Part shown: positions 1 to 15,546 of the stretch, piece after piece
Numbering within the stretch: position 1 is the stretch's first letter
Layout of the letters: each line of letters begins with the position of its first letter
Virus record (IMG/VR): IMGVR_UViG_2671180637_000005
Source: a virus
Taxonomy: Duplodnaviria > Heunggongvirae > Uroviricota > Caudoviricetes
Reading direction: 5' to 3' (one strand)
DNA: 18,478 bases
Notes under the pieces: model-generated
Seen by the model: the letters and a program-made list of their open reading frames with translations, nothing else
Databases searched by the model: none
Told to the model about the DNA's origin: nothing
Made by a program: the position numbers and the translations under genes

Positions 1-180
1 CAGTTTAAGAAAGAATATGAAATGATTAATTATAATGATGGTTGGTATTATGTTCTTGCTCGTTATGATAATTGTCTGGTTTTGTCTACTTCTTTTAATG
101 CAGGTAGTAAAAGGTTTGTCATTTATCAATCAGCACAAGATAAGAATCTTCAGGTTGATATTGTAAGGACCAGAATTTAA
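1..180 (+). CDS. 3' end of an unidentified protein-coding gene (partial, start lies outside the window)
   Basis: Frame 1 is open from base 1 to a TAA at 178-180 (60 codons, ...DGWYYVLARYDNCLVLSTSFNAGSKRFVIYQSAQDKNLQVDIVRTRI*). Visibly AT-rich compared with the structural genes. No family recognised. Confidence 0.35.
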   Translation, partial: QFKKEYEMINYNDGWYYVLARYDNCLVLSTSFNAGSKRFVIYQSAQDKNLQVDIVRTRI

Positions 181-427
181 TTGGCTGCATAAATAATATT
201 TTAAGTTGCAAGTTGGCTATTCGTAGGAATAGAACCTTAGGCATGCTGAATGCGTTTTCTGAACATTGTTTTATAAACTGTGTCTGCTTGCTGTTGTGAT
301 CCTGCTTTTAGTGATGGTGATGATGGATTTCACCAGCAGGATAATGTTGGTACTGACTGATGGCGCTCTGGTCTGCGGCATTGTGGTATTGCTGTGGCCG
401 ATGATGAAAAAACAGAATGAATAATCC

Positions 428-456
428 TTGACTTTTTTGTTTACTGTTTATTAAAA
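428..456 (+). promoter_or_regulatory. candidate sigma70-like promoter (TTGACT -35 with AT-rich -10-like sequence)
   Basis: TTGACT at 428-433 followed 15-17 nt later by TATTAA/TTAAAA. AT-rich context, so chance occurrence is possible. Confidence 0.25.
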
Positions 457-610
457 AATCAACCGCATGGTGAATCCTCCTTGGAGGGGCTAAATGATCG
501 AGTTTTAAGGGCACGTAGCGAGTTCTGTTTGATCATTGCAGAACTTAGCGGGAGGCGCCATGCGTACATCACTAATGTTATTTCCTTCTATCATTTTCCT
601 TGTGAGTTCT

Positions 611-636
611 GGCTGCGCATGGCGCGGCCTTTTTTT
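611..636 (+). terminator. intrinsic terminator-like hairpin plus T-run
   Basis: GGCTGCGC(611-618) / GCGCGGCC(622-629), 8 bp stem with one G-U pair and a 3-nt loop, then TTTTTTT (630-636). Confidence 0.4.
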
Positions 637-817
637 ATGACCTGCCACTGGCAGATGGTCATCCTGTGATTTGATTCCGGTTCCGGCTTTTTAACTCTGT
701 TCCTGTACACGGGAGAAATTCTATGTCGATTAATCGTTATGATATTGGTTACAAGAAGTACCACGTATTGTGTTGAGATAGAAAGCCTGGTGCCAGAGGT
801 AAATGCAGCAGCATAAT

Positions 818-880
818 AAAAAAGAGCCAGCGCAGAAGAGAACGGGTAAAAGAGTCTGCGCTGGCGTGGGGATATTCCCC
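818..880 (-). terminator. leftward intrinsic terminator-like structure (two adjacent hairpins, U-run on minus strand)
   Basis: 11-bp perfect inverted repeat GCCAGCGCAGA(826-836)/TCTGCGCTGGC(855-865) with 18-nt loop; second hairpin GGGGA-TAT-TCCCC (868-880). A6 run at 818-823 on + strand gives a U-run directly 3' of the stem on the minus-strand RNA. Confidence 0.4.
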
Positions 881-1044
881 GTGGAGAAATGATATGTAAC
901 ACACATCGGGAACCTTTCTATATAAACATTATCATTATTGTCAATCATAACAGTCAGGTATTATGACGTTTATGCATCAGGGCCATCAGGAATTAACTGG
1001 TGGCTTTTTATTGTTGTCAGCTTCCGGATAACGGGAGACGGGGT

Positions 1045-1260
1045 ATGTACCAGATGGAAAAAATAACAACAGGTGTGTCATACACCACGTCAGCGGTGGG
1101 GACGGGATACTGGCTACTGCAGTTGCTGGACAAAGTCTCCCCATCCCAGTGGGTGGCAATAGGCGTATTGGGTAGCCTGGTGTTTGGCTTGCTGACGTAT
1201 CTGACAAACCTTTATTTCAAGATTAAAGAAGATAAGCGTAAGGCTGCGAGAGGTGAATAA
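1045..1260 (+). CDS. pinholin, phage 21 S21-like class II holin with dual-start motif
   Basis: Translation [71 protein letters not shown] closely matches my recollection of S21 (...[15 protein letters not shown]...[20 protein letters not shown]). Two TMDs. Two in-frame ATGs at 1045 and 1054. Stop overlaps endolysin start (TAATG). Confidence 0.85.
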
Positions 1261-1757
1261 TGTCGCCATCATTACGCAAGGCTGTTGCTGCTGCTATTGG
1301 TGGTGGGGCTGTTGCCATAGCGTCTGTGCTCATCACTGGTCCGAGTGGTGACGATGGCCTGGAAGGTGTCAGCTACATACCATACGAAGATATCGTTGGC
1401 GTATGGACTGTATGTCACGGACACACCGGAAAAGACATCATTCCCGGTAAAACGTATACCGAAGCAGAATGCAAAGCCCTCCTGAATAAAGACCTTGCCA
1501 TGGTCGCCAGACAAATTAACCCGTACATCAAAGTCGATATACCGGAAACAACGCGCGGCGCTCTTTACTCGTTTGTTTACAACGTGGGCGCTGGTAATTT
1601 CAGAACATCGACGCTTCTTCGCAAAATAAACCAGGGTGATATCAAAGGCGCATGTGACCAGCTACGTCGCTGGACATACGCTGGCGGTAAGCAATGGAAA
1701 GGCCTGATGACTCGTCGTGAGATTGAGCGTGAAGTCTGTTTGTGGGGGCAGCAATGA
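1260..1757 (+). CDS. SAR endolysin (signal-anchor-release T4-lysozyme-type muramidase, R21-like)
   Basis: N-terminal Gly/Ala-rich weakly hydrophobic SAR segment ([21 protein letters not shown]) followed by E...D...T catalytic region ([16 protein letters not shown]). Near-identical to recalled phage 21 R. Confidence 0.9.
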
Positions 1758-2221
1758 GCAGAGTAACCGCGATTATCTCCGCTCTGATTATCTGCATCAT
1801 CGTCTGCCTGTCATGGGCTGTTAATCATTACCGTGATAACGCCATCGCCTACAAAGAGCAGCGCGACAAAAACGCCAGAGAGCTGAAGCAGGCGACCGCC
1901 ACCATTACTGACATGCAGCAGCGCCAGCGTGCTGCTGATGTACTCGATGCTAAATACACGAAGGAGTTAGCCAATGCGAAAGCTGAAAATGATGCTCTTC
2001 GGCGTAAGCTTGATAATGGTGGTCGGGTGCTCGTCAAAGGAAAATGCCCTGTGCCAGCCTCAGCCAAAACCTCCAGCGCCTCCGGCATGGGCAATGAGGC
2101 CACCGTCGAACTCTCTTCAGTTGCTGGACGAAACGTTCTCGGTATCCGGGACGGAATTATCCGTGACCAAACAGCACTGAGAACGCTTCAGGAGTACATC
2201 AGGACGCAATGCCTGAAATAA
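1754..2221 (+). CDS. i-spanin Rz (lambda-like)
   Basis: [45 protein letters not shown]... closely matches recalled lambda Rz. N-terminal TMD then coiled-coil periplasmic domain. ATG 1754 overlaps endolysin stop (ATGA). Confidence 0.9.
1974..2180 (+). CDS. o-spanin Rz1, lipoprotein embedded in the +1 frame of Rz
   Basis: Entirely inside Rz in another frame. Signal peptide with lipobox VVGC then Pro-rich mature part ([18 protein letters not shown]). Resembles lambda Rz1. Confidence 0.85.
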
Positions 2222-2254
2222 ATTTTTTTGCAAATCACAAAGTCAATTTAATGA

Positions 2255-2277
2255 GCCTCGCGATGCGGGGCTTTTTT
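2255..2277 (+). terminator. intrinsic terminator-like hairpin downstream of Rz
   Basis: GCCTCGC(2255-2261) / GCGGGGC(2265-2271) stem, 3-nt loop, followed by TTTTTT (2272-2277). Confidence 0.55.
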
Positions 2278-2420
2278 ATGTCCGCAGTAAACGCGCATCT
2301 CACGCGCATATTAACGAGAGCCTTTCAGTAAGCGAGCCTGAGAAATGCCGTTATAGGTGGCGACCTCTCTCGGGCGGCTTTTCTGTGAGACAGGCTCACT
2401 TTCTAAAAGGTAAAGACGCT

Positions 2421-2945
2421 ATGAATAATCATTCAGTTATTCCAGCCTTCGACTTCCGAGAAATGGTGCAAGCCAAAAACGGAGAGGTCGTTACCACATC
2501 CAGAAAAATTGCCAAGTACTTCGGCAAGCGACACGGTGATGTTCTCAGGAAAATCGAGCAGGTTAAGGCTGATTGCTCGCGTGAGTTTAGCCAACGCAAT
2601 TTTGCGTCGGCTGATTATATCGATGAGCAGGGCAAGGTTCGCCCGATGTACAGCCTGACGAAAGATGGCTGGATCATGGTTGTGATGGGGTTCACCGGGA
2701 AAGCTGCTGCGGCAATCAAGGAGAGCTATATCGCAGCATTCAACTGGATGGCAGAGCAACTGAGCCGCCGCATGGCAATTGGCGAAGAAATGCAGCACCG
2801 CTACGCCATCAAAGAAACACGCTCAAAGCTGAAAGGTACGATCGGCAGTCGGTTAATGAACGAACGGAAGAGAGAGAAGCGTGTCCTGGCTGTCGAGCAT
2901 GAATACATTTTGCAGGTGACACAGCCTGAACTGCTGATTAATTGA
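2421..2945 (+). CDS. Rha-family phage regulatory protein (moron position between lysis cassette and cos)
   Basis: N-terminal region ...VTTSRKIAKYFGKRHGDVLRKIEQ... matches the Rha signature as I recall it. ORF open from 2385, but ATG 2421 (MNNHSV) is the more plausible start. C-terminal ~80 aa unassigned. Confidence 0.7.
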   Translation: MNNHSVIPAFDFREMVQAKNGEVVTTSRKIAKYFGKRHGDVLRKIEQVKADCSREFSQRNFASADYIDEQGKVRPMYSLTKDGWIMVVMGFTGKAAAAIKESYIAAFNWMAEQLSRRMAIGEEMQHRYAIKETRSKLKGTIGSRLMNERKREKRVLAVEHEYILQVTQPELLIN

Positions 2946-3341
2946 AGATGTCATTACAAAGCCTATCTACGGGTGGGCTTGATAATGGCTTATACCCTGC
3001 ACGGGATAACTTAACTGATATCCCTTTTAACGGATAAAGGTATTCAGGCCAGACACATCATGCGCTGTATCGTCGCCGTATTCCCGCATTAACCATGACC
3101 GTAGCCCGACGGGGAACTCCTCTGCGTGAGTGTGCGGGAATAATCAAAAACGATGCACACCGGGTTTTTACCGCGTTTATGATTCGTGGGTTTGTCCCTC
3201 ATGCTCGCCAGTCCTGTGCGGGGGTGGAAGAAACAGGACACTTACACAGATTCTTGTGGGCACGATGCTATGCCTTTCTGGATTATCCCGATGCCATTCA
3301 TGCAAGGCGTTGTATCAGACGTTCGTCAGAGTTGTCAGGCT

Positions 3342-3390
3342 GACGGGTCCTCCCGGTGGGGTGGCCTGCCACGGGGCGGGAGCGTCGCGG
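3342..3390. other. cos site: cosQ-like and cosN-like elements of a lambda-type cohesive-end site
   Basis: GACGGGTCCTCCCGGTG (3342-3358) resembles lambda cosQ (ACGGGTCCTTTCCGGTG). ACG|GGGCGGGAGCGTCGCGG (3371-3390) resembles the lambda cosN junction (ACG|GGGCGGCGACCTCGCGG). Lies ~180 bp upstream of the small terminase gene, as in lambda. Lambda sequence is recalled from memory. Confidence 0.5.
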
Positions 3391-3428
3391 AAAAAGGCTA
3401 GTTTTTGAAATTTTATTCGTCATCACCA

Positions 3429-3456
3429 CCACTGTAATTGATTGATATTACAGTGG
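3429..3456. repeat. perfect 10-bp inverted repeat in the cosB-equivalent interval
   Basis: CCACTGTAAT (3429-3438) / ATTACAGTGG (3447-3456) with 8-nt spacer TGATTGAT, followed by TTTTATTTTC. Candidate terminase or host-factor binding site, or a terminator. Confidence 0.4.
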
Positions 3457-3559
3457 TTTTATTTTCATGGTGTCGATTCTGATTGTTTTTTGTTCATCAC
3501 TAACACCGTTTGCCTAAAGTTGTTCGCAAGATGCATGTTTAAAACATTCTGGAGCGGGT

Positions 3560-4054
3560 ATGGATCGAGAGTTAAAAAATCTGACGCTGAATATCAGTCA
3601 ACTGGCGGCATTGTCAGGTGTACATCGCCAGACTGCTGCGGCAAGGCTGCAAAATCTACCCGTTGCAGGGGGGCATGAAAGCAACCTCAAGCTTTATCGG
3701 GTGGTTGATATTGTGTCGGCATTTCTGGCATTACCACCGCCGGTTGCAGAAGGCGAAATGGACGCGCATGAGCGCAAAGCCTGGTATCAGTCTGAACGTG
3801 AGCGTCTTAAGTTCGAACAGGAAACGGCACAACTCATTCCGGCCAGTGATGTCAGACGGGAGTTTGCCATCTGGGCAAAAGCGGTCGTGCAGGTGCTGGA
3901 GACATTACCGGATATTCTTGAACGTGACTGCGGTCTGCAGCCTGCCGCTGTGAGCCGTGTTCAGTCCATTATTGATGATCTGCGCGATCAGATAGCCCTG
4001 CGGGTGACTGAAGCAGGTGCGGATGATGAGGAGGAATTACAGCAGGAGGAGTAA
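3560..4054 (+). CDS. terminase small subunit (Nu1-like, N-terminal HTH DNA-binding)
   Basis: Position immediately downstream of cos and upstream of terL. N-terminal HTH-like segment (LTLNISQLAALSGVHRQTAAARLQN), acidic C-terminus. RBS GGAG upstream. Stop overlaps terL start (TAATG). Confidence 0.75.
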   Translation: MDRELKNLTLNISQLAALSGVHRQTAAARLQNLPVAGGHESNLKLYRVVDIVSAFLALPPPVAEGEMDAHERKAWYQSERERLKFEQETAQLIPASDVRREFAIWAKAVVQVLETLPDILERDCGLQPAAVSRVQSIIDDLRDQIALRVTEAGADDEEELQQEE

Positions 4055-5838
4055 TGCTGAATCAGGAAACCGCAAAGGCAGCACGAACCGATTCAGGTTA
4101 TATCCTTCGCGCACCGAGACGAATGCGGGTTGCTGATGCCGTTGCTCAGTATATGCGGGTGCCTATGGGGGCAGGGAACTCAGTCCCGTGGGATCCGCTG
4201 GTGGCACCGTATGTTATTGAGCCTATGAACTGCCTGGCCTCGCGTGAATACGACGCAGTGATATTTGTTGGCCCGGCACGAACCGGCAAGACTATCGGCC
4301 TGATTGACGGCTGGGTGATTTACAACGTGATTTGCGATCCTGCTGATATGCTGATCATTCAGATGACGGAGGAAAAAGCCCGCGAACACTCCAAAAAACG
4401 ACTCGCCAGAACGTTTCGCGTCAGCCCGGAAGTGGTCAGTCGCCTGAGTCCGAACAAAAATGACAACAACGTTTATGACAGAACATTCCTTGCTGGCAAC
4501 TACCTGAAAATCGGCTGGCCGTCAGTCAATATCATGTCTTCATCAGATTATAAATGCGTGGCGCTGACGGATTATGACCGTTTTCCGGAAGATATTGATG
4601 GTGAGGGGGATGCCTTCTCTCTTGCCTCAAAACGTACCACCACATTTATGTCCAGTGGTATGACGCTGGTGGAGAGTTCCCCCGGCAGGGATGTGAAGGA
4701 TGTGAAATGGCGACGGACTTCACCGCATGAGGCTCCACCAACCACGGGGATCCTGTCGCTCTATAACCGTGGCGATCGCCGTCGCTGGTACTGGCCCTGT
4801 CCACACTGTGGTGAGTATTTTCAGCCCTGCGGCGATGTGGTTGCTGGTTTCCGTGATATTGCCGATCCTGTGCTGGCAAGTGAGGCGGCTTATATTCAGT
4901 GTCCTTCCTGTTCAGGACGGATTTTGCCTGAACAAAAACGCGAGCTGAACGGACGTGGGGTCTGGTTACGGGATGGTGAATCCATCAATGCAGATGGCAG
5001 TCGTTATGGTGATCCCCGGCGTTCACGTATTGCGTCATTCTGGATGGAGGGTCCGGCAGCTGCTTATCAGACACTCTCGCAACTCGTTTACAAACTGCTT
5101 ACTGCAGAACAGGAATACGAGACAACCGGAAGTGAAGAGACACTCAAGACGGTTATCAATACCGACTGGGGATTACCTTATCTTCCCCGCGCCAGCATGG
5201 AGCAACGAAAAAGTGAATTGCTTGAGCAGCGGGCAGAGCCAGTTCCTTCCCGCAGTGTGCCGGATGGCGTTAATTTCCTTGTGGCGACAGTGGATGTGCA
5301 GGCGGGACGTCATCGCCGTTTTGTGGTTCAGGTAACGGGCTATGGCAGCCGTGGCGAACGCTGGATTATTGATCGTTACAACATCACGCAGTCATTGCGC
5401 GGTGACAGCGACGGGGAGAGCCAGCGAATTGATCCGGCCAGCTATCCGGAAGACTGGGATGTCCTGCTGACGGATGTTTTTCATAAAAGCTGGCCGCTGG
5501 CCTCCGATCCTTCTCAACAAATGCGACTGATGGCAATGGCGGTGGACTCCGGCGGTGAAGACGGGGTCACTGATAATGCCTATAAATTCTGGCGTCGTTG
5601 CCGTCGTGATGGCCTTGGTAAACGTATTTACCTGTTTAAGGGCGACAGCATCCGGCGCGCAAAACTGATCACCCGTACATTCCCTGATAACACCGGACGA
5701 ACGGGCCGACGGGCGCAGGCCGCAGGTGATGTGCCGCTCTGGCTTCTTCAGACGGATGCCCTGAAAGATCGGGTGAATAACGCGTTATGGCGTGACTCGC
5801 CAGGTCCCGGCTGGCGAGGTTCTGATGGCAATTCTTGA
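4054..5838 (+). CDS. terminase large subunit (GpA family)
   Basis: 594 aa. Walker A-like GPARTGKT; CPHCGE zinc-ribbon-like motif and VWLRDGE segment shared with lambda gpA (recalled). Followed directly by portal. Confidence 0.9.
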   Translation: MLNQETAKAARTDSGYILRAPRRMRVADAVAQYMRVPMGAGNSVPWDPLVAPYVIEPMNCLASREYDAVIFVGPARTGKTIGLIDGWVIYNVICDPADMLIIQMTEEKAREHSKKRLARTFRVSPEVVSRLSPNKNDNNVYDRTFLAGNYLKIGWPSVNIMSSSDYKCVALTDYDRFPEDIDGEGDAFSLASKRTTTFMSSGMTLVESSPGRDVKDVKWRRTSPHEAPPTTGILSLYNRGDRRRWYWPCPHCGEYFQPCGDVVAGFRDIADPVLASEAAYIQCPSCSGRILPEQKRELNGRGVWLRDGESINADGSRYGDPRRSRIASFWMEGPAAAYQTLSQLVYKLLTAEQEYETTGSEETLKTVINTDWGLPYLPRASMEQRKSELLEQRAEPVPSRSVPDGVNFLVATVDVQAGRHRRFVVQVTGYGSRGERWIIDRYNITQSLRGDSDGESQRIDPASYPEDWDVLLTDVFHKSWPLASDPSQQMRLMAMAVDSGGEDGVTDNAYKFWRRCRRDGLGKRIYLFKGDSIRRAKLITRTFPDNTGRTGRRAQAAGDVPLWLLQTDALKDRVNNALWRDSPGPGWRGSDGNS

Positions 5839-7333
5839 TGATGTGATTGGCGTTTTTTCACCAGGATGGAAAGCGGCAAGGCTGCGTTCCCGTACGGTGA
5901 TCCAGGCTTATGAGGCCGTAAAAACGACGCGGACACACAAAGCCCGGCGGGAAAACCGAACTGCCGACCAGTTAAGCCAGTACGGGGCCGTGTCGTTACG
6001 TGAGCAGGCCCGTTACCTTGATAACAACCACGATCTGGTTATTGGTGTATTTGATAAGCTGGAAGAACGGGTGGTGGGGAAAAACGGGATTATTGTCGAG
6101 CCACATCCGGTATTACGCAATGGGGCCATTGCCCGTGACCTGGCTGCGGAGATTCGCACCCGATGGAGTGAATGGTCTGTCAGCCCGGAAGTCACCGGGC
6201 AGTTTACCCGTCCGATGCTGGAACGTCTGATGCTGCGTACCTGGCTGCGCGATGGTGAGGTGTTTGCCCAGATGGTTTCCGGGCGCATAAACAGCCTGAC
6301 GCCTTCTGCCGGTGTTCATTTCTGGCTGGAGGCGCTCGAGCCGGACTTTATTCCCATGACCAGTGATGAGAGCAACAGGCTGAATCAGGGCGTGTTTGTT
6401 GATGACTGGGGGCGTCCCGAAAAATATCTGGTGTATAAAAGCCGTCCCGTATCCGGACGGCAGATGGAAACCAAAGAAGTGGATGCAGAGCGAATGCTGC
6501 ATCTTAAATTTGTTCGCCGTCTGCACCAGATGCGCGGGACGTCTTTATTGTCCGGTGTGCTGATCCGCCTCAGTGCTCTGAAAGAGTATGAAGATTCTGA
6601 GCTGACTGCAGCAAGGATCGCCGCTGCTCTGGGGATGTACATCCGGAAAGGCGACGGGCAGAGCTATGAAGCGGATGGTAATGGCAGCAAGGATAAGGAA
6701 CGCGAGCTTACCATTCAGCCAGGCATTATTTACGACGATCTGAAACCCGGCGAAGAAATCGGAATGGTGAAGTCGGATCGTCCCAATCCTAACCTTGAAA
6801 CTTTTCGTAATGGTCAGTTGCGTGCCGTGGCGGCGGGCAGTCGTCTGAGTTTTTCCAGTACGGCACGCAACTATAACGGCACTTACAGCGCCCAGCGTCA
6901 GGAGCTGGTTGAATCCACTGATGGCTACCTGATCCTGCAGGACTGGTTTATTGGTGCCGTCACCCGCCCGATGTATCGTGCCTGGCTGAAACTGGCTGTG
7001 GCATCCGGTGTTATCAGGCTACCCCGCGATCTTGATCGTTCTTCACTGTATACCGCGGTGTATTCCGGACCGGTGATGCCGTGGATTGACCCTGTTAAGG
7101 AGGCTGAGGCCTGGAAAATTCAGATTCGTGGTGGAGCGGCGACAGAATCAGACTGGGTACGTGCAGGTGGTCGTAATCCGGATGATGTCAAACGTCGGCG
7201 CAAGGCCGAAATTGATGAAAACCGCAAGCTGGATCTGGTATTTGATACCGATCCGGCCAGTGATAAAGGAGGCAGCAGTGCCGCAACGAAACGACAGGAG
7301 CCGCAGCACACCGACGACCAGTCCGAAGAATAA
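5825..7333 (+). CDS. portal protein (lambda gpB family)
   Basis: ~500 aa ORF between terL and the protease/capsid gene. ORF is open from GTG 5792; ATG 5825 with GAGG 7 nt upstream preferred. Acidic C-terminal tail. Confidence 0.85.
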   Translation: MAILDDVIGVFSPGWKAARLRSRTVIQAYEAVKTTRTHKARRENRTADQLSQYGAVSLREQARYLDNNHDLVIGVFDKLEERVVGKNGIIVEPHPVLRNGAIARDLAAEIRTRWSEWSVSPEVTGQFTRPMLERLMLRTWLRDGEVFAQMVSGRINSLTPSAGVHFWLEALEPDFIPMTSDESNRLNQGVFVDDWGRPEKYLVYKSRPVSGRQMETKEVDAERMLHLKFVRRLHQMRGTSLLSGVLIRLSALKEYEDSELTAARIAAALGMYIRKGDGQSYEADGNGSKDKERELTIQPGIIYDDLKPGEEIGMVKSDRPNPNLETFRNGQLRAVAAGSRLSFSSTARNYNGTYSAQRQELVESTDGYLILQDWFIGAVTRPMYRAWLKLAVASGVIRLPRDLDRSSLYTAVYSGPVMPWIDPVKEAEAWKIQIRGGAATESDWVRAGGRNPDDVKRRRKAEIDENRKLDLVFDTDPASDKGGSSAATKRQEPQHTDDQSEE

Positions 7334-12171: not shown

Positions 12172-12509
12172 CGCGGGAAATGCAGTTTGTCATGCGGCTT
12201 GCCCGGGAGTTCCGGCGGGCAGACTGGCGGCGGATGCTGTCGGAAATGTCGGCCACTGAGCTTGGTGAGTGGGGCGATTATTTCCGGATGCAGAGCTTCA
12301 GTGATGTGTGGATGGATGCGCAGTTTGCCTCGCTGAAGGCATTGATCGTGAGAATGGTGTCCGGCAGCAGTGATGCTGCGGTGGCTGATTTCAGCCTTTT
12401 ACCGGAAGAGAACGGGATACCGGAGCGAACGGACGAAGAACTGATGCATCTTGGGGAAGGTATTTCCGGAGGTGTGCGTTATGGACCAGATAGCCAACCT
12501 GGTCATTGA
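11782..12509 (+). CDS. tail assembly chaperone G-T fusion made by a programmed -1 frameshift near the end of G
   Basis: The T reading frame (12180-12509 ORF, ...ADWRRMLSEMSATELGEWGDYF...) is -1 relative to G and is open from 12147, overlapping the last 22 nt of G. Candidate slip site G GAA AAG at 12159-12165. Same arrangement as lambda G/GT. Confidence 0.7.
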
Positions 12510-15500
12510 TTTGGGGATTGATGCGGCAGAGTTTAAAAATGAAATTCCCCGTATCAAAAACCTTCTGAATGGTGCAGCCAGCGATGCAGAACGGTCTTCT
12601 GCCCGTATGCAGCGTTTTATGGAGCGTCAGACTCAGGCCGCCCGGCAGACAACGCAGGCGGCTTCTTCGGCTGCAACAGCCGCATCCGTCCATGCGCAGA
12701 CGGTGGAGAAAAACGCACAGGCTCATGAACGCATGGCCCGCGAGGTGGAGAAAACCCGCCAGCGCATGGAGGCACTGAGCCAGAAAATGCGCGAGGAACA
12801 GGCGCTGGCCATGGCTCTGGTGGAGGCTCAGGATAAAGCGGCTGCTGCGTTTTATCGTCAGATTGACAGTGTGAAACAGGCCAGTGCGGGGCTGCAGGAA
12901 TTACAGCGTATTCAGCAGCAGATCCGACAGGCCAGAAACAGTGGCGGGATTGGTCAGCAGGATTATCTGGCGCTGATTTCTGAGGTTGCTGCGAAAACCC
13001 GTGTTCTTACACAGGCTGAGGCAGAGGCTACCCGACAGAAAGTGGCGTTTATCCGTCAGCTCAAAGAGCAGGCAACCCGCCAGAATCTTTCATCTTCTGA
13101 GTTGCTTCGTGCTAAGGCAGCCCAGCTGGGGGTAAGCAGTGCTGCAGAAGTGTATATCCGCAAAATGGAGCAGGCAGGAAAAGCCACGCATTCGCTGGGT
13201 CTGAAAAGTGCAGCAGCCCGCCAGGAGATAGGCGTTCTGATAGGTGAACTGGCCCGCGGCAATTTAGGGGCGCTGAGGGGATCCGGGATAACGCTGGCTA
13301 ACCGTGCCGGATGGATAGACACACTGATGTCACCGAAAGGCATGATGCCAGGCGGGGTTATTGGCGGTATTGCCGCGGCCGTCTATGGTCTGGGTAAAGC
13401 CTGGTATGACGGTCAGAAGGAGGGGGAAGAATTTAACCGCCAGTTGTCGCTGACGGGGCATTATGCCGGAGTCACTGCCGGGCAGCTGTGGACGCTCAGT
13501 CGTGCTATTTCCGGGAATGGTATCACGCAACATGCTGCAGCCGGTGCGCTGGCTCAGGTGGTGGGGAGTGGTGCATTTCGTGGAAACGATATCGGTATGG
13601 TGGCGAGAGCTGCCGCACAGATGGAGCGATCGGTTGGCCAGTCGGTCAGCGATACCATAAATCAGTTTAAGCGGCTGACGGATGATCCTGTAAATGCCGC
13701 GAAGGCTCTGGACAATGAGCTGCATTTTCTTACTGCCACTCAGCTTGAGCAGATACGCGTCCTTGGGGAGCAGGGGCGGTCCAGTGATGCTGCACGGATA
13801 GCCATGTCTGCACTGGCGGAGGAAACCGGTCGGCGTACTGCGGATATTGATAATAACCTCAATGCGCTGGGTAGTACGCTGCAAACCTTGTCTGACTGGT
13901 GGAAGCAGTTCTGGGATGCGGCCATGAATATTGGTCGTGAAGATTCGCTGGATGCGCAGATTGCCACTTTGCAGGAGAAAGTGTCGCGGGCGAAAAGACT
14001 CCCCTGGACGGCATCATCTTCTCAGGTTGAATACGATCAGCAGCGTCTTAACGATCTTCAGGAGAAAAAACGCCAGAAGGATTTGCAGGATGCAAAAGAG
14101 CAGGCAGAGCGGAATTATCAGGAGCAACAGAAACGCCGTAATGCTGAAAATGCTGCACTGAACCGGATGAATGAAACGGAAGCAGCACGACATCAGCGTG
14201 AAATTGCGCGTATTAATGCCATGCAGTACGCCGATCAGGCTGTCAGGGATGCGGCGATACAACGTGAAAATGAACGTTACGAGAAAGCCCAGGCATCCGG
14301 TAAGAAAAAAACACGCGAAACCCGTAATGATGAGGCCACCCGGTTATTGCTGCAGTACAGTCAGCAACAGGCACAGGTGGAAGGACAGATTGCTGCTGCC
14401 AGACAGTCAGCAGGCATTGCCACGGAAAGGATGACAGAAGCGCATAAACAGCTTCTGGCTCTGCAGCAGCGCATCAGCGACCTGGACGGGAAAAAACTGA
14501 CGGCAGATGAAAAGAGTGTGCTGGCCCGTAAAGATGAACTGATTCAGGCACTGACGCTGCTGGATGTAAAACAGCAGGAGCTTCAGAAACAGACGGCACT
14601 CAACGATCTGAAGAAAAAAACAATTCAGCTGACCAGTCAACTGGCTGAAGAAGAGCGCGCTCAGCGTCAGCAACATGACCTGGATATCGCCACGGTGGGT
14701 ATGGGTGATCAGCAGCGACAGCGATATCAGGTACAACTGAGTCTTCGCCAGAAATACCAGCAACAGCTGGAGCAGTTGAGGCGGGATAGTGAGCAGAAAG
14801 GGACATATAACACGGATGACTACAGAAAGGCCGAGCAGGCGCTGACGGAGAGCCTGAACCGACAACTGAATGAGAATCGCCGTTACTGGCAACAGCTTGA
14901 AGTTGTGCAGGGTAACTGGAAAAACGGAGTCCTGCGTGCATTTCAGGATTTTACCGTGGATGCAGATAATACGGCAGGAACAGCAGAACAGGTGTTCTCG
15001 TCAGCCTTCAGCAACATGGGAAATGGCCTGGCAACTTTTGTCACTACCGGCAAACTCAATTTCAAATCCTTCACCTCTTCTGTGCTGTCAGATATGGCGA
15101 AAATCCTGGCGCAGGCAACCATGATGAAATCGATAAAAGGGATTGGCAGTGTACTGGGATTTGATCTCAGCAGCCTTTCCCTGAATGCCAATGGGGGGAT
15201 TTATCAGTCTGCTGATTTGAGTCGTTACAGTGGCACGGTGGTTAACCGTCCGACGTTTTTTGCTTTTGCAAAAGGCGCGGGTGTGATGGGGGAAGCGGGA
15301 CCTGAAGCCATTCTGCCACTGCGTCGTGGTGCTGACGGTAAGCTGGGGGGTGTGGCGGATATTGGGGGTTCAGGTATGGCGATGTTTGCCCCGCAGTACA
15401 ACATCGAGATCAATAACGATGGCACGAACGGGCAGATAGGTCCGGCTGCCCTGAAGGTGGTTTATGACCTCGGGAAAAAAGCGGCAGCGGACTTTATGCA

Positions 15501-15546
15501 ACAGCAGGCCCGTAATGGTGGTCGGTTAAGTGGAGCATATCGGTAA
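12481..15546 (+). CDS. H: tail tape measure protein H (lambda gpH-like)
   Basis: ~1020 aa; start MDQIANLVIDLGIDAAEF with RBS GGAGG; C-terminus INNDGTNGQIGPAALKVVYDL... matches lambda H. Long Q/E/R/A-rich coiled-coil-like centre. Confidence 0.9.
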   Translation: MDQIANLVIDLGIDAAEFKNEIPRIKNLLNGAASDAERSSARMQRFMERQTQAARQTTQAASSAATAASVHAQTVEKNAQAHERMAREVEKTRQRMEALSQKMREEQALAMALVEAQDKAAAAFYRQIDSVKQASAGLQELQRIQQQIRQARNSGGIGQQDYLALISEVAAKTRVLTQAEAEATRQKVAFIRQLKEQATRQNLSSSELLRAKAAQLGVSSAAEVYIRKMEQAGKATHSLGLKSAAARQEIGVLIGELARGNLGALRGSGITLANRAGWIDTLMSPKGMMPGGVIGGIAAAVYGLGKAWYDGQKEGEEFNRQLSLTGHYAGVTAGQLWTLSRAISGNGITQHAAAGALAQVVGSGAFRGNDIGMVARAAAQMERSVGQSVSDTINQFKRLTDDPVNAAKALDNELHFLTATQLEQIRVLGEQGRSSDAARIAMSALAEETGRRTADIDNNLNALGSTLQTLSDWWKQFWDAAMNIGREDSLDAQIATLQEKVSRAKRLPWTASSSQVEYDQQRLNDLQEKKRQKDLQDAKEQAERNYQEQQKRRNAENAALNRMNETEAARHQREIARINAMQYADQAVRDAAIQRENERYEKAQASGKKKTRETRNDEATRLLLQYSQQQAQVEGQIAAARQSAGIATERMTEAHKQLLALQQRISDLDGKKLTADEKSVLARKDELIQALTLLDVKQQELQKQTALNDLKKKTIQLTSQLAEEERAQRQQHDLDIATVGMGDQQRQRYQVQLSLRQKYQQQLEQLRRDSEQKGTYNTDDYRKAEQALTESLNRQLNENRRYWQQLEVVQGNWKNGVLRAFQDFTVDADNTAGTAEQVFSSAFSNMGNGLATFVTTGKLNFKSFTSSVLSDMAKILAQATMMKSIKGIGSVLGFDLSSLSLNANGGIYQSADLSRYSGTVVNRPTFFAFAKGAGVMGEAGPEAILPLRRGADGKLGGVADIGGSGMAMFAPQYNIEINNDGTNGQIGPAALKVVYDLGKKAAADFMQQQARNGGRLSGAYR

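Follow-up and report, generated by a model that had tools for sequence, protein, structure and literature searches.

A probable lambda-type cohesive-end site upstream of a truncated terminase gene in an 18.5-kb prophage contig

Organisation of the locus

The window, i.e., the whole stretch of 18,478 nucleotides that was analysed, is the entire contig CYEI01000038.1 of GCA_001285545.2, and our view of the strain is confined to these 18.5 kb. Upstream of the presumed packaging site lie a lysis cassette and a Rha-family regulator, and downstream of the large terminase gene (Table 1) lie a lambda-family portal gene (5825-7333) and then a ClpP-protease/capsid fusion. The small terminase gene begins 174 bp past the predicted cohesive end, in the same orientation, and is followed by the gene for the large subunit; in lambda, the site is likewise placed directly upstream of the two terminase genes, with the Nu1 start at bp 191.

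The preliminary description of this DNA called the terminase a divergent GpA-type enzyme, which is borne out for both subunits. TerL matches PF05876 (E = 1e-71) and PF20454 (E = 8e-64), the gpA-family ATPase and endonuclease, and like lambda gpA belongs to the gpA family, although it is only 25% identical to gpA and about 41% identical to the TerL of Chi-like phages. Its GpA_ATPase domain is complete, whereas the GpA_nuclease profile is matched only at positions 1-230 of 294 (1-294 in the 700-aa homologue of E2348/69). TerS falls outside the Nu1 family of lambda: its sole Pfam match is DUF1441, not Phage_Nu1, and a BLASTP comparison with lambda Nu1 detected no similarity (E = 20). A phmmer search of the PDB with TerS returned nothing relevant, and a single-sequence AF2 model (mean pLDDT 66; 44-68 in the N-terminal region) was too poor for a test of a winged helix-turn-helix. 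Headful packaging was considered and rejected, given a gpA-family TerL and a conserved cos motif.

Table 1. Features of the predicted packaging region, in window coordinates (bp, distance from the predicted left end)
Feature	Coordinates	Strand	Basis or remark
cosQ-like heptamer GGGTCCT	3345-3351	+	same as the lambda cosQ heptamer; predicted top-strand nick 22 nt downstream
cosN core CG/GGGCGGGAGCGT/CG	3372-3387		lambda junction alignment; predicted nicks after 3373 (top) and at 3385/3386 (bottom)
Predicted 12-nt 5' cohesive end GGGCGGGAGCGT	3374-3385	+	commonest allele in the clade sample
Conserved linker between cosN and cosB, CGCGGAAAAAGGCTAGTTTTTGAAATTTTATTCG	3386-3419	+	resembles CGCGGGTTTTCGCTATTTATGAAAATTTT of lambda
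Candidate R3-like TerS binding repeat TCATCACCACCACTGT	3420-3435	+	bp 47-62; position and repetition
Perfect 11-bp inverted repeat with 8-nt loop, then TTTTATTTT	3428-3457	+	T-run 3458-3466, then 3467-3472
I1-like IHF consensus TATCAATCAATTA	3435-3447	-	bp 62-74; sequence consensus
Candidate R1-like repeat TCATCACTAACACCGT	3494-3509	+	bp 121-136; kept in most relatives with window-type cosB
Small terminase subunit, 164 aa	3560-4054	+	Pfam DUF1441 (E = 2.7e-41); phrog_141 'terminase small subunit' (E = 7e-74)
Large terminase subunit, truncated, 594 aa (586 native + 8 out-of-frame)	4054-5838	+	gpA family
540-bp deletion junction in GGTCCCGGCT microhomology	5803-5812	+	comparison with the E2348/69 prophage

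Resemblance to lambda cos

The cosQ-like and cosN-like segments had been matched to the lambda junction in the preliminary description. The lambda sequence used there agrees with the ends of NC_001416, and alignment to that record reproduces the match, its coordinates and its bases. Positions 3345-3390 read GGGTCCT-N19-ACG/GGGCGGGAGCGT/CGCGG (slashes mark predicted nicks), with CCACG stopping at 3373 and CGCGG occupying 3386-3390; in the wider context, the heptamer is preceded by ...GCTGAC and followed by CCCGGTGGGGTGGCCTGCC ACG/GGGCGGGAGCGT/CGCGGAAAAAGGCTAGTTTTTG... In lambda, as taken from the ends of the record itself, the right end ...GGGTCCTTTCCGGTGATCCGACAGGTTACG is joined to the left end GGGCGGCGACCTCGCGG (at greater length, ...ACGGGTCCTTTCCGGTGATCCGACAGGTTACG and GGGCGGCGACCTCGCGGGTTTTCGC...). 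Aligned to this junction, 3342-3390 is identical in 34 of 50 columns, with a single gap of 1 nt.

The cosQ heptamer, the left half ACG/GGGCGG and the right flank /CGCGG are unchanged from lambda, so that both GGGCGG and the CG flank at each predicted nick are present, as in lambda cosN. A partial two-fold symmetry about the centre of the overhang takes in the CG on the 5' side of both predicted nicks and extends to 12 of 22 positions in the window and to 10 of 22 in lambda. The differences from lambda are a spacer of 22 rather than 23 nt between cosQ and the nick, and mismatches at overhang positions 7, 8, 9 and 11, i.e., the four differences that had been predicted. With up to 2 mismatches allowed, a search of the window for the composite motif GGGTCCT-N19-ACGGGGCGG-N6-CGCGG returned a single site, and none of 200 dinucleotide-preserving shuffles contained it, even with 2 mismatches.

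From homology, conservation, frequency, position beside the terminase genes and agreement with deposited genome ends, it is very probable that 3345-3390 is the cosQ-cosN part of a lambda-type cohesive-end site in a lambdoid E. coli prophage of the mEp460/cdtI/E2348-69 packaging type, whose head module contains a ClpP-capsid fusion. The exact nick register is likely to be the one that lambda homology predicts, with comparably high confidence, and identification as a cos site appears more secure than the register.

Genome ends in deposited phages and the nick register

Several deposited phages carry the same site. In cdtI, Tritos, mEp460, phi458, vB_EcoS-569R4 and Ayreon, the cosQ heptamer is accompanied by a cosN with the overhang GGGCGGGAGCGT, the same 12-mer as in the window within the frame CCACG...CGCGGAAAAAGGCTAGTTTTTG; about 21 bp of the linker are identical or nearly so in the cdtI/Tritos/mEp460 group, and the cosQ-cosN spacer varies at a few bases. 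The region also matches PhiR47_1, among others. The TerL proteins of phi458 and 569R4 are 99.7-99.9% identical to that of the window, whereas cdtI and Tritos have a different cosB, a TerS of 42% identity and a TerL of 87-88% identity. Phages of the cdtI/Tritos/mEp460 group have a full-length TerL and a gpW-like gene, both of which the window lacks. More distant members of the terminase clade, mEp213 and LLS (TerL about 80% identical, TerS of the DUF1441 type), share the frame CCACG/GGGCGG-N6-/CGCGGRAAANGGCTAGTTTTT and have an IHF-like site at the same position, one mismatch from the consensus. They differ from the window in the hexamer that completes the overhang (CGCGCT vs. GAGCGT) and in the R-like repeats (TCATCATCATCAT vs. 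TCATCACCAC).

Comparison with related cos regions, which the preliminary description proposed as a check, places the predicted ends at the first and last bases of the cdtI (AB285204, 2007) and Tritos (OV696610) records, which begin with GGGCGGGAGCGTCGCGG and finish with ...CCTGCCACG, i.e., open with GGGCGGGAGCGT and close with ...CCACG. In the LLS record, a misc_feature, '5' extended single-strand cohesive site GGGCGGCGCGCT', is annotated at the homologous base (TerL 80% identical). The left end therefore lies at the predicted base or its homologue in three independent records. Tritos is prophage 3 of LF82 and forms virions and plaques; the paper describing it gives no end mapping that would explain how its ends were set (PMC9928086). 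The cos of LLS was inferred by its authors as equal to the putative mEp213 cos, with reference to Vahanian et al. 2017 and a personal communication of M. Feiss (PMC12315714). In the accessible literature, no experimental end mapping was found for any phage of this terminase clade, and a literature search with the overhang 12-mer matched only an unrelated rat promoter paper.

Other records bear less on the ends. Following convention, the Ayreon genome was opened at its terminase gene, as the paper says, and its start is therefore uninformative; the mEp460 record closes at the same arbitrary position. No IMG/VR contig among the matches listed begins at the nick, but these are mostly prophages from isolate genomes and thus uninformative in this respect. 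In the mEp460_4F5 record (LR595868.1, bases 1-30), the first base lies 5 nt before the predicted nick (CCACG GGGCGGGAGCG), and 3 nt are missing where overhang and right flank meet (GAGCG-CGGAAAAA); this has the look of a misassembly at a cohesive end and not of true variation. With arbitrary openings in several deposited genomes and one start that is 5 nt off, annotation of the cos region would be useful for fixing genome start points in this phage group.

An observation on a sister subgroup of five IMG/VR loci (L095, L126, L081, L067 and L065; TerL 72-74% identical) is relevant to the variability of the site. Here GCGG, GCGGG or GTCGG takes the place of the hexamer, and the cosQ-to-nick distance is 24 nt. 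Either the overhang of this subgroup falls short of 12 nt, or distance, rather than the right flank, determines its nick register. With the hexamer replaced by 4-5 nt, the wider clade may therefore be variable in overhang length or register.

These data bear on whether the site is a real cos that is nicked away from the places predicted from lambda, with a 10-11 nt overhang or a shift of 1-2 bases. Such a shift is conceivable because TerL is only distantly related to gpA and closer to the Chi-like enzymes. The 22-nt spacer, the sister subgroup in which no more than 4-5 nt separate GGGCGG from CGCGGAAAAA, and the displaced, 3-nt shorter start of mEp460_4F5 point the same way. On the other hand, the CG 5' of each predicted nick and the centre of symmetry are kept, and the cdtI, Tritos and LLS records all place their left end at this base or its homologue. 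Chi-like relatives, too, have 12-nt 5' ends. The hexamer is also exactly 6 nt long in the 123 clade sites listed, although the search pattern itself demanded that length. A shifted nick is therefore considered improbable, and the lambda-like register is retained; as TerL is only 25% identical to gpA, this register rests on conservation of the DNA site.

The putative cosB and a model of cos cleavage

From its sequence, we infer that cosB occupies about 3386-3510, just before the terminase genes. The linker at 3386-3419 is common to the window, Tritos and cdtI despite their differing cosB and TerS. The cosB sequence is unrelated to that of lambda. A direct repeat, TCATCACNANCACNGT, is present at bp 47-62 and again at bp 121-136; the two copies agree at 13 of 16 bases, a likeness of marginal significance by a rough estimate; R3 of lambda occupies bp 50-65 (PMC9026076). 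For the inverted R2 of lambda, only weak matches with 5 mismatches were found in cosB, so that an R2-like element is not recognised in the window. As in lambda, whose nearest IHF match is also on the minus strand (bp 79-91), an IHF consensus lies between the candidate repeats, and it is the only perfect match to WATCAANNNNTTR in the 18.5-kb window. Among 99 distinct left ends of the clade, which span several TerS types, 54 have a perfect minus-strand IHF consensus at bp 60-64, compared with 0.3% of shuffles.

The IHF consensus is contained in the loop of the inverted repeat. The RNA fold of 3410-3480 has an energy of -20.9 kcal/mol (z = -4.3), and the pairing is kept in 24 relatives through T-A, C-G, A-T and T-G changes; in these relatives, wobbles are tolerated only on the plus strand, and one distal pair covaries from A-T to G-C. 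From its sequence, the hairpin followed by TTTTATTTT looks like an intrinsic terminator inside cosB. It could thus act as an RNA element, for example, as a terminator before the terminase genes, besides or instead of being a protein site.

By analogy with lambda (PMC9026076, PMC4669245), nick positions, TerS binding, IHF binding and activity can be projected onto the window as follows. TerS dimers would bind cosB at the two candidate repeats, IHF would bend the DNA at bp 62-74, and TerS bound in this way would position the gpA-type TerL for nicking. One TerL would then nick the bottom strand at 3385/3386 (bp 12/13) and a second the top strand at 3373/3374, which would leave 12-nt 5' overhangs with the top strand starting GGGCGGGAGCGT and the bottom strand starting ACGCTCCCGCCC. 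At the end of a packaging run, cosQ would support the terminating cut.

Distribution and conservation of the site

The cos region was found in 2093 of 5426 complete E. coli genomes (about 39%), with at most 7 copies per genome, and none of the E. coli records listed has an annotated feature under the match. To judge conservation independently of the DNA motif, IMG/VR loci were retrieved by the TerL protein alone (at least 87% identity). All 80 carry the element. Of these loci, 66 are identical over 3369-3390, i.e., have the allele GGGCGGGAGCGT, and the cos core of the window is the majority form. The block 3369-3406 is more conserved than its flanks, its linker part (3386-3406) is nearly invariant, and the cosQ heptamer is well conserved, albeit not invariant.

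Scans of IMG/VR by DNA pattern gave a wider view. A general lambda-type pattern returned at least 46 sites with the lambda allele, at least 11 with GGGCGGGAGCGT and at least 8 with the mEp213 allele. The clade-specific frame returned at least 123 sites with, among the matches listed, at least 18 hexamer alleles, the commonest being GAGCGT (57 of 123); cosQ stands at the 22-nt spacing in 99 of the 123. Among GTDB species representatives, the frame ACG/GGGCGG-N6-/CGCGGRAAANGGCT is spread across the Enterobacterales (Escherichia, Enterobacter, Klebsiella, Citrobacter, Kluyvera, Rahnella, Proteus, Providencia, Morganella, Xenorhabdus, Erwinia and other genera). In the same set, the GAGCGT allele is found only in Escherichia, E. 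ruysiae and a few MAGs labelled Veillonella or Bacillota, labels that are probably binning errors. The cos element is ordinary, widespread and essentially documented already.

It might be argued that the conserved block is not a packaging signal at all and is instead part of a small gene or a purely transcriptional element such as a terminator-like hairpin. Two mechanically called plus-strand ORFs, 3130-3408 (92 aa) and 3186-3401 (71 aa), cross cosQ and cosN, hypothetical proteins are annotated at the homologous place in some phage records (e.g., mEp213_073), and the terminator-like hairpin lies 55 bp downstream of the site. Nevertheless, neither Pfam nor PHROG gave a match for the neighbouring ORF 3095-3343, the block corresponds to the experimentally defined cosQ and cosN of lambda, and it is kept where the upstream context is of at least four unrelated kinds and the downstream cosB of three types. 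Because conservation persists across unrelated flanks, a DNA site fits and a gene does not. The coding explanation was rejected on this ground, both ORFs are probably over-calls on a non-coding packaging site, and a role unrelated to packaging is regarded as extremely improbable.

Overhang alleles and packaging specificity

The preliminary description took the four overhang differences from lambda to imply altered terminase specificity. This interpretation does not hold, since overhang positions 7-12 are naturally variable and tolerant of change. Lambda-like phages commonly differ at bp 7-12, for example, Gifsy-1 at 8, 9 and 11 and N15 at 9 and 12, and right-half cosN mutations show at most a slight phenotype (Feiss et al. 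2015, PMC4669245). In the same work, C11G, a change also present in the window, had no phenotype, whereas the symmetric G2C decreased the yield approximately 10-fold; selection falls on cosQ, the left half of cosN and the CG flanks, and no cosN specificity was found in lambda and N15-hybrid terminases (PMC4669245).

The alleles sampled here agree with this. Adding C7G to GGGCGGCAGCGT, an allele with differences from lambda at 8, 9 and 11, gives the window allele. GGGCGGCAGCGT departs from lambda at the same three positions as Gifsy-1 and occurs in lambda-clade loci; those sampled encode a lambda-clade TerL (66% identical to gpA) and a Nu1-type TerS, in contrast to the DUF1441 TerS and 25%-identical TerL of the window. 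Gifsy-1 and N15, whose cosN alleles likewise differ from lambda only within bp 7-12, are described as lambda-like. The lambda hexamer CGACCT, in turn, was also found next to a TerL of the window's clade. Four hexamers (GAGCGT, GAGCGG, GAGCAT and CAGCGG) occur beside TerL proteins that are 96-100% identical to the E2348/69 reference, i.e., the intact form of the window's TerL, and beside 100%-identical TerS proteins. On these comparisons, the overhang differences are ordinary allelic variation and no mark of a new nuclease specificity. It should be noted that an altered sticky end by itself does not signal altered nuclease specificity, which corrects an easy misreading.

Because overhang alleles vary beside near-identical terminases, and because TerL and TerS have both diverged from those of lambda, packaging specificity most likely resides in cosB and TerS, neither of which resembles its lambda counterpart. 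Tritos and cdtI, which combine the same cosN with a different cosB and a TerS of 42% identity, show that cosN and cosB are separable modules.

The hexamer at positions 7-12, with its 18 or more alleles in an otherwise nearly invariant frame, might also be under diversifying selection rather than neutral drift. Such selection might serve sticky-end incompatibility, for example, by preventing end-joining between co-resident lambdoid prophages or by evading cos-hijacking satellites. A companion proposal is that the strand-specific hairpin and U-run in cosB might block uninduced read-through into the terminase genes. Taken together, the two proposals are a long shot. For the hexamer, neutrality is favoured, since within the window-type group its variability does not exceed that of the neighbouring cosQ-cosN spacer.

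A deletion in the terminase gene and its consequences

Comparison with the E2348/69 prophage explains the shortened nuclease profile. Positions 1-5812 of the window correspond to 1-5805 of the E2348/69 locus, and the window from 5800 onward corresponds to the locus from 6333 onward; the intervening deletion is flanked by two imperfect 10-bp repeats, GGTCCCGGCT and GGTACCGGCT. The native TerL sequence stops at residue 586 of 700, so that 114 C-terminal residues are lost and 8 out-of-frame residues are added. The lost part aligns with lambda gpA from residue ~541 on and includes a conserved NEA[FL]D motif. In gpA, portal binding is located in the C-terminal region (PMC9026076), and by alignment the lost region covers this portal-binding end. 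The deletion also removes a 70-aa gpW-like head-tail joining gene between the TerL and portal genes.

An assembly artefact was rejected as the cause of the truncation. The identical 594-aa product is found on 7 contigs from three sources (NCBI, ENA and Logan), and the deletion is therefore real. The best-ranked complete E. coli genomes match a query across the junction only as two pieces spanning 941 bp, so that none of them carries it. Apart from this deletion, the structural genes look intact, with open portal, capsid and tail frames; the tape-measure ORF (12451-15546, 1031 aa) is open, whereas its E2348/69 counterpart is annotated as frameshifted.

For these reasons, the earlier statement that the virion genome ends fall inside the window applies to the phage type but probably not to this prophage. 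With a truncated TerL and no gpW-like gene, the prophage probably cannot mature its DNA or make virion ends unaided, and its site would therefore be cut and packaged only through the terminase of a co-resident phage with the same cosB specificity. The strain thus combines an intact cos with a broken terminase, and any mobilisation would need a helper.

A stronger version of this conclusion is that the cos of this genome is an inert relic that is never cut, the prophage being packaging-defective and lacking a compatible helper. The damage is in keeping with such a state: the deletion, real as it is, truncates the TerL nuclease domain and removes both the portal-binding-end region and the gpW-like gene. 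Yet the cos core is still the majority form and the portal, capsid and tail frames are open, so the deletion looks recent. Moreover, E. coli genomes carry up to 7 cos copies, which makes a helper of the same specificity plausible, and only one 18.5-kb contig of the strain was examined. The relic reading is accordingly given slightly less than an even chance. Marking cos in genome records would help to separate packageable from defective prophages.

Variants and hybrids of the site

Two further observations concern the wider family of sites. In prophages of Proteus, Providencia, Morganella, Xenorhabdus and Rahnella (L291-L329, e.g., L295, L307 and L318), the cosQ position has AGGTACTCC instead of GGGTCCTCC, a genus-associated variant that stands beside the same cosN frame. 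In two IMG/VR loci with lambda-clade terminases (L011 and L032, with cos at ~12071 and ~2345, respectively), a cdtI-type cosQ side with 22-nt spacing (...TTCCGGTGGGGTGGCCTGCCACG) passes, within GGGCGG, into a left end of the lambda type (CGCGGGTTTTCGCTATTTATG...). These hybrids suggest that the two terminase clades have recombined or exchanged ends at cosN.
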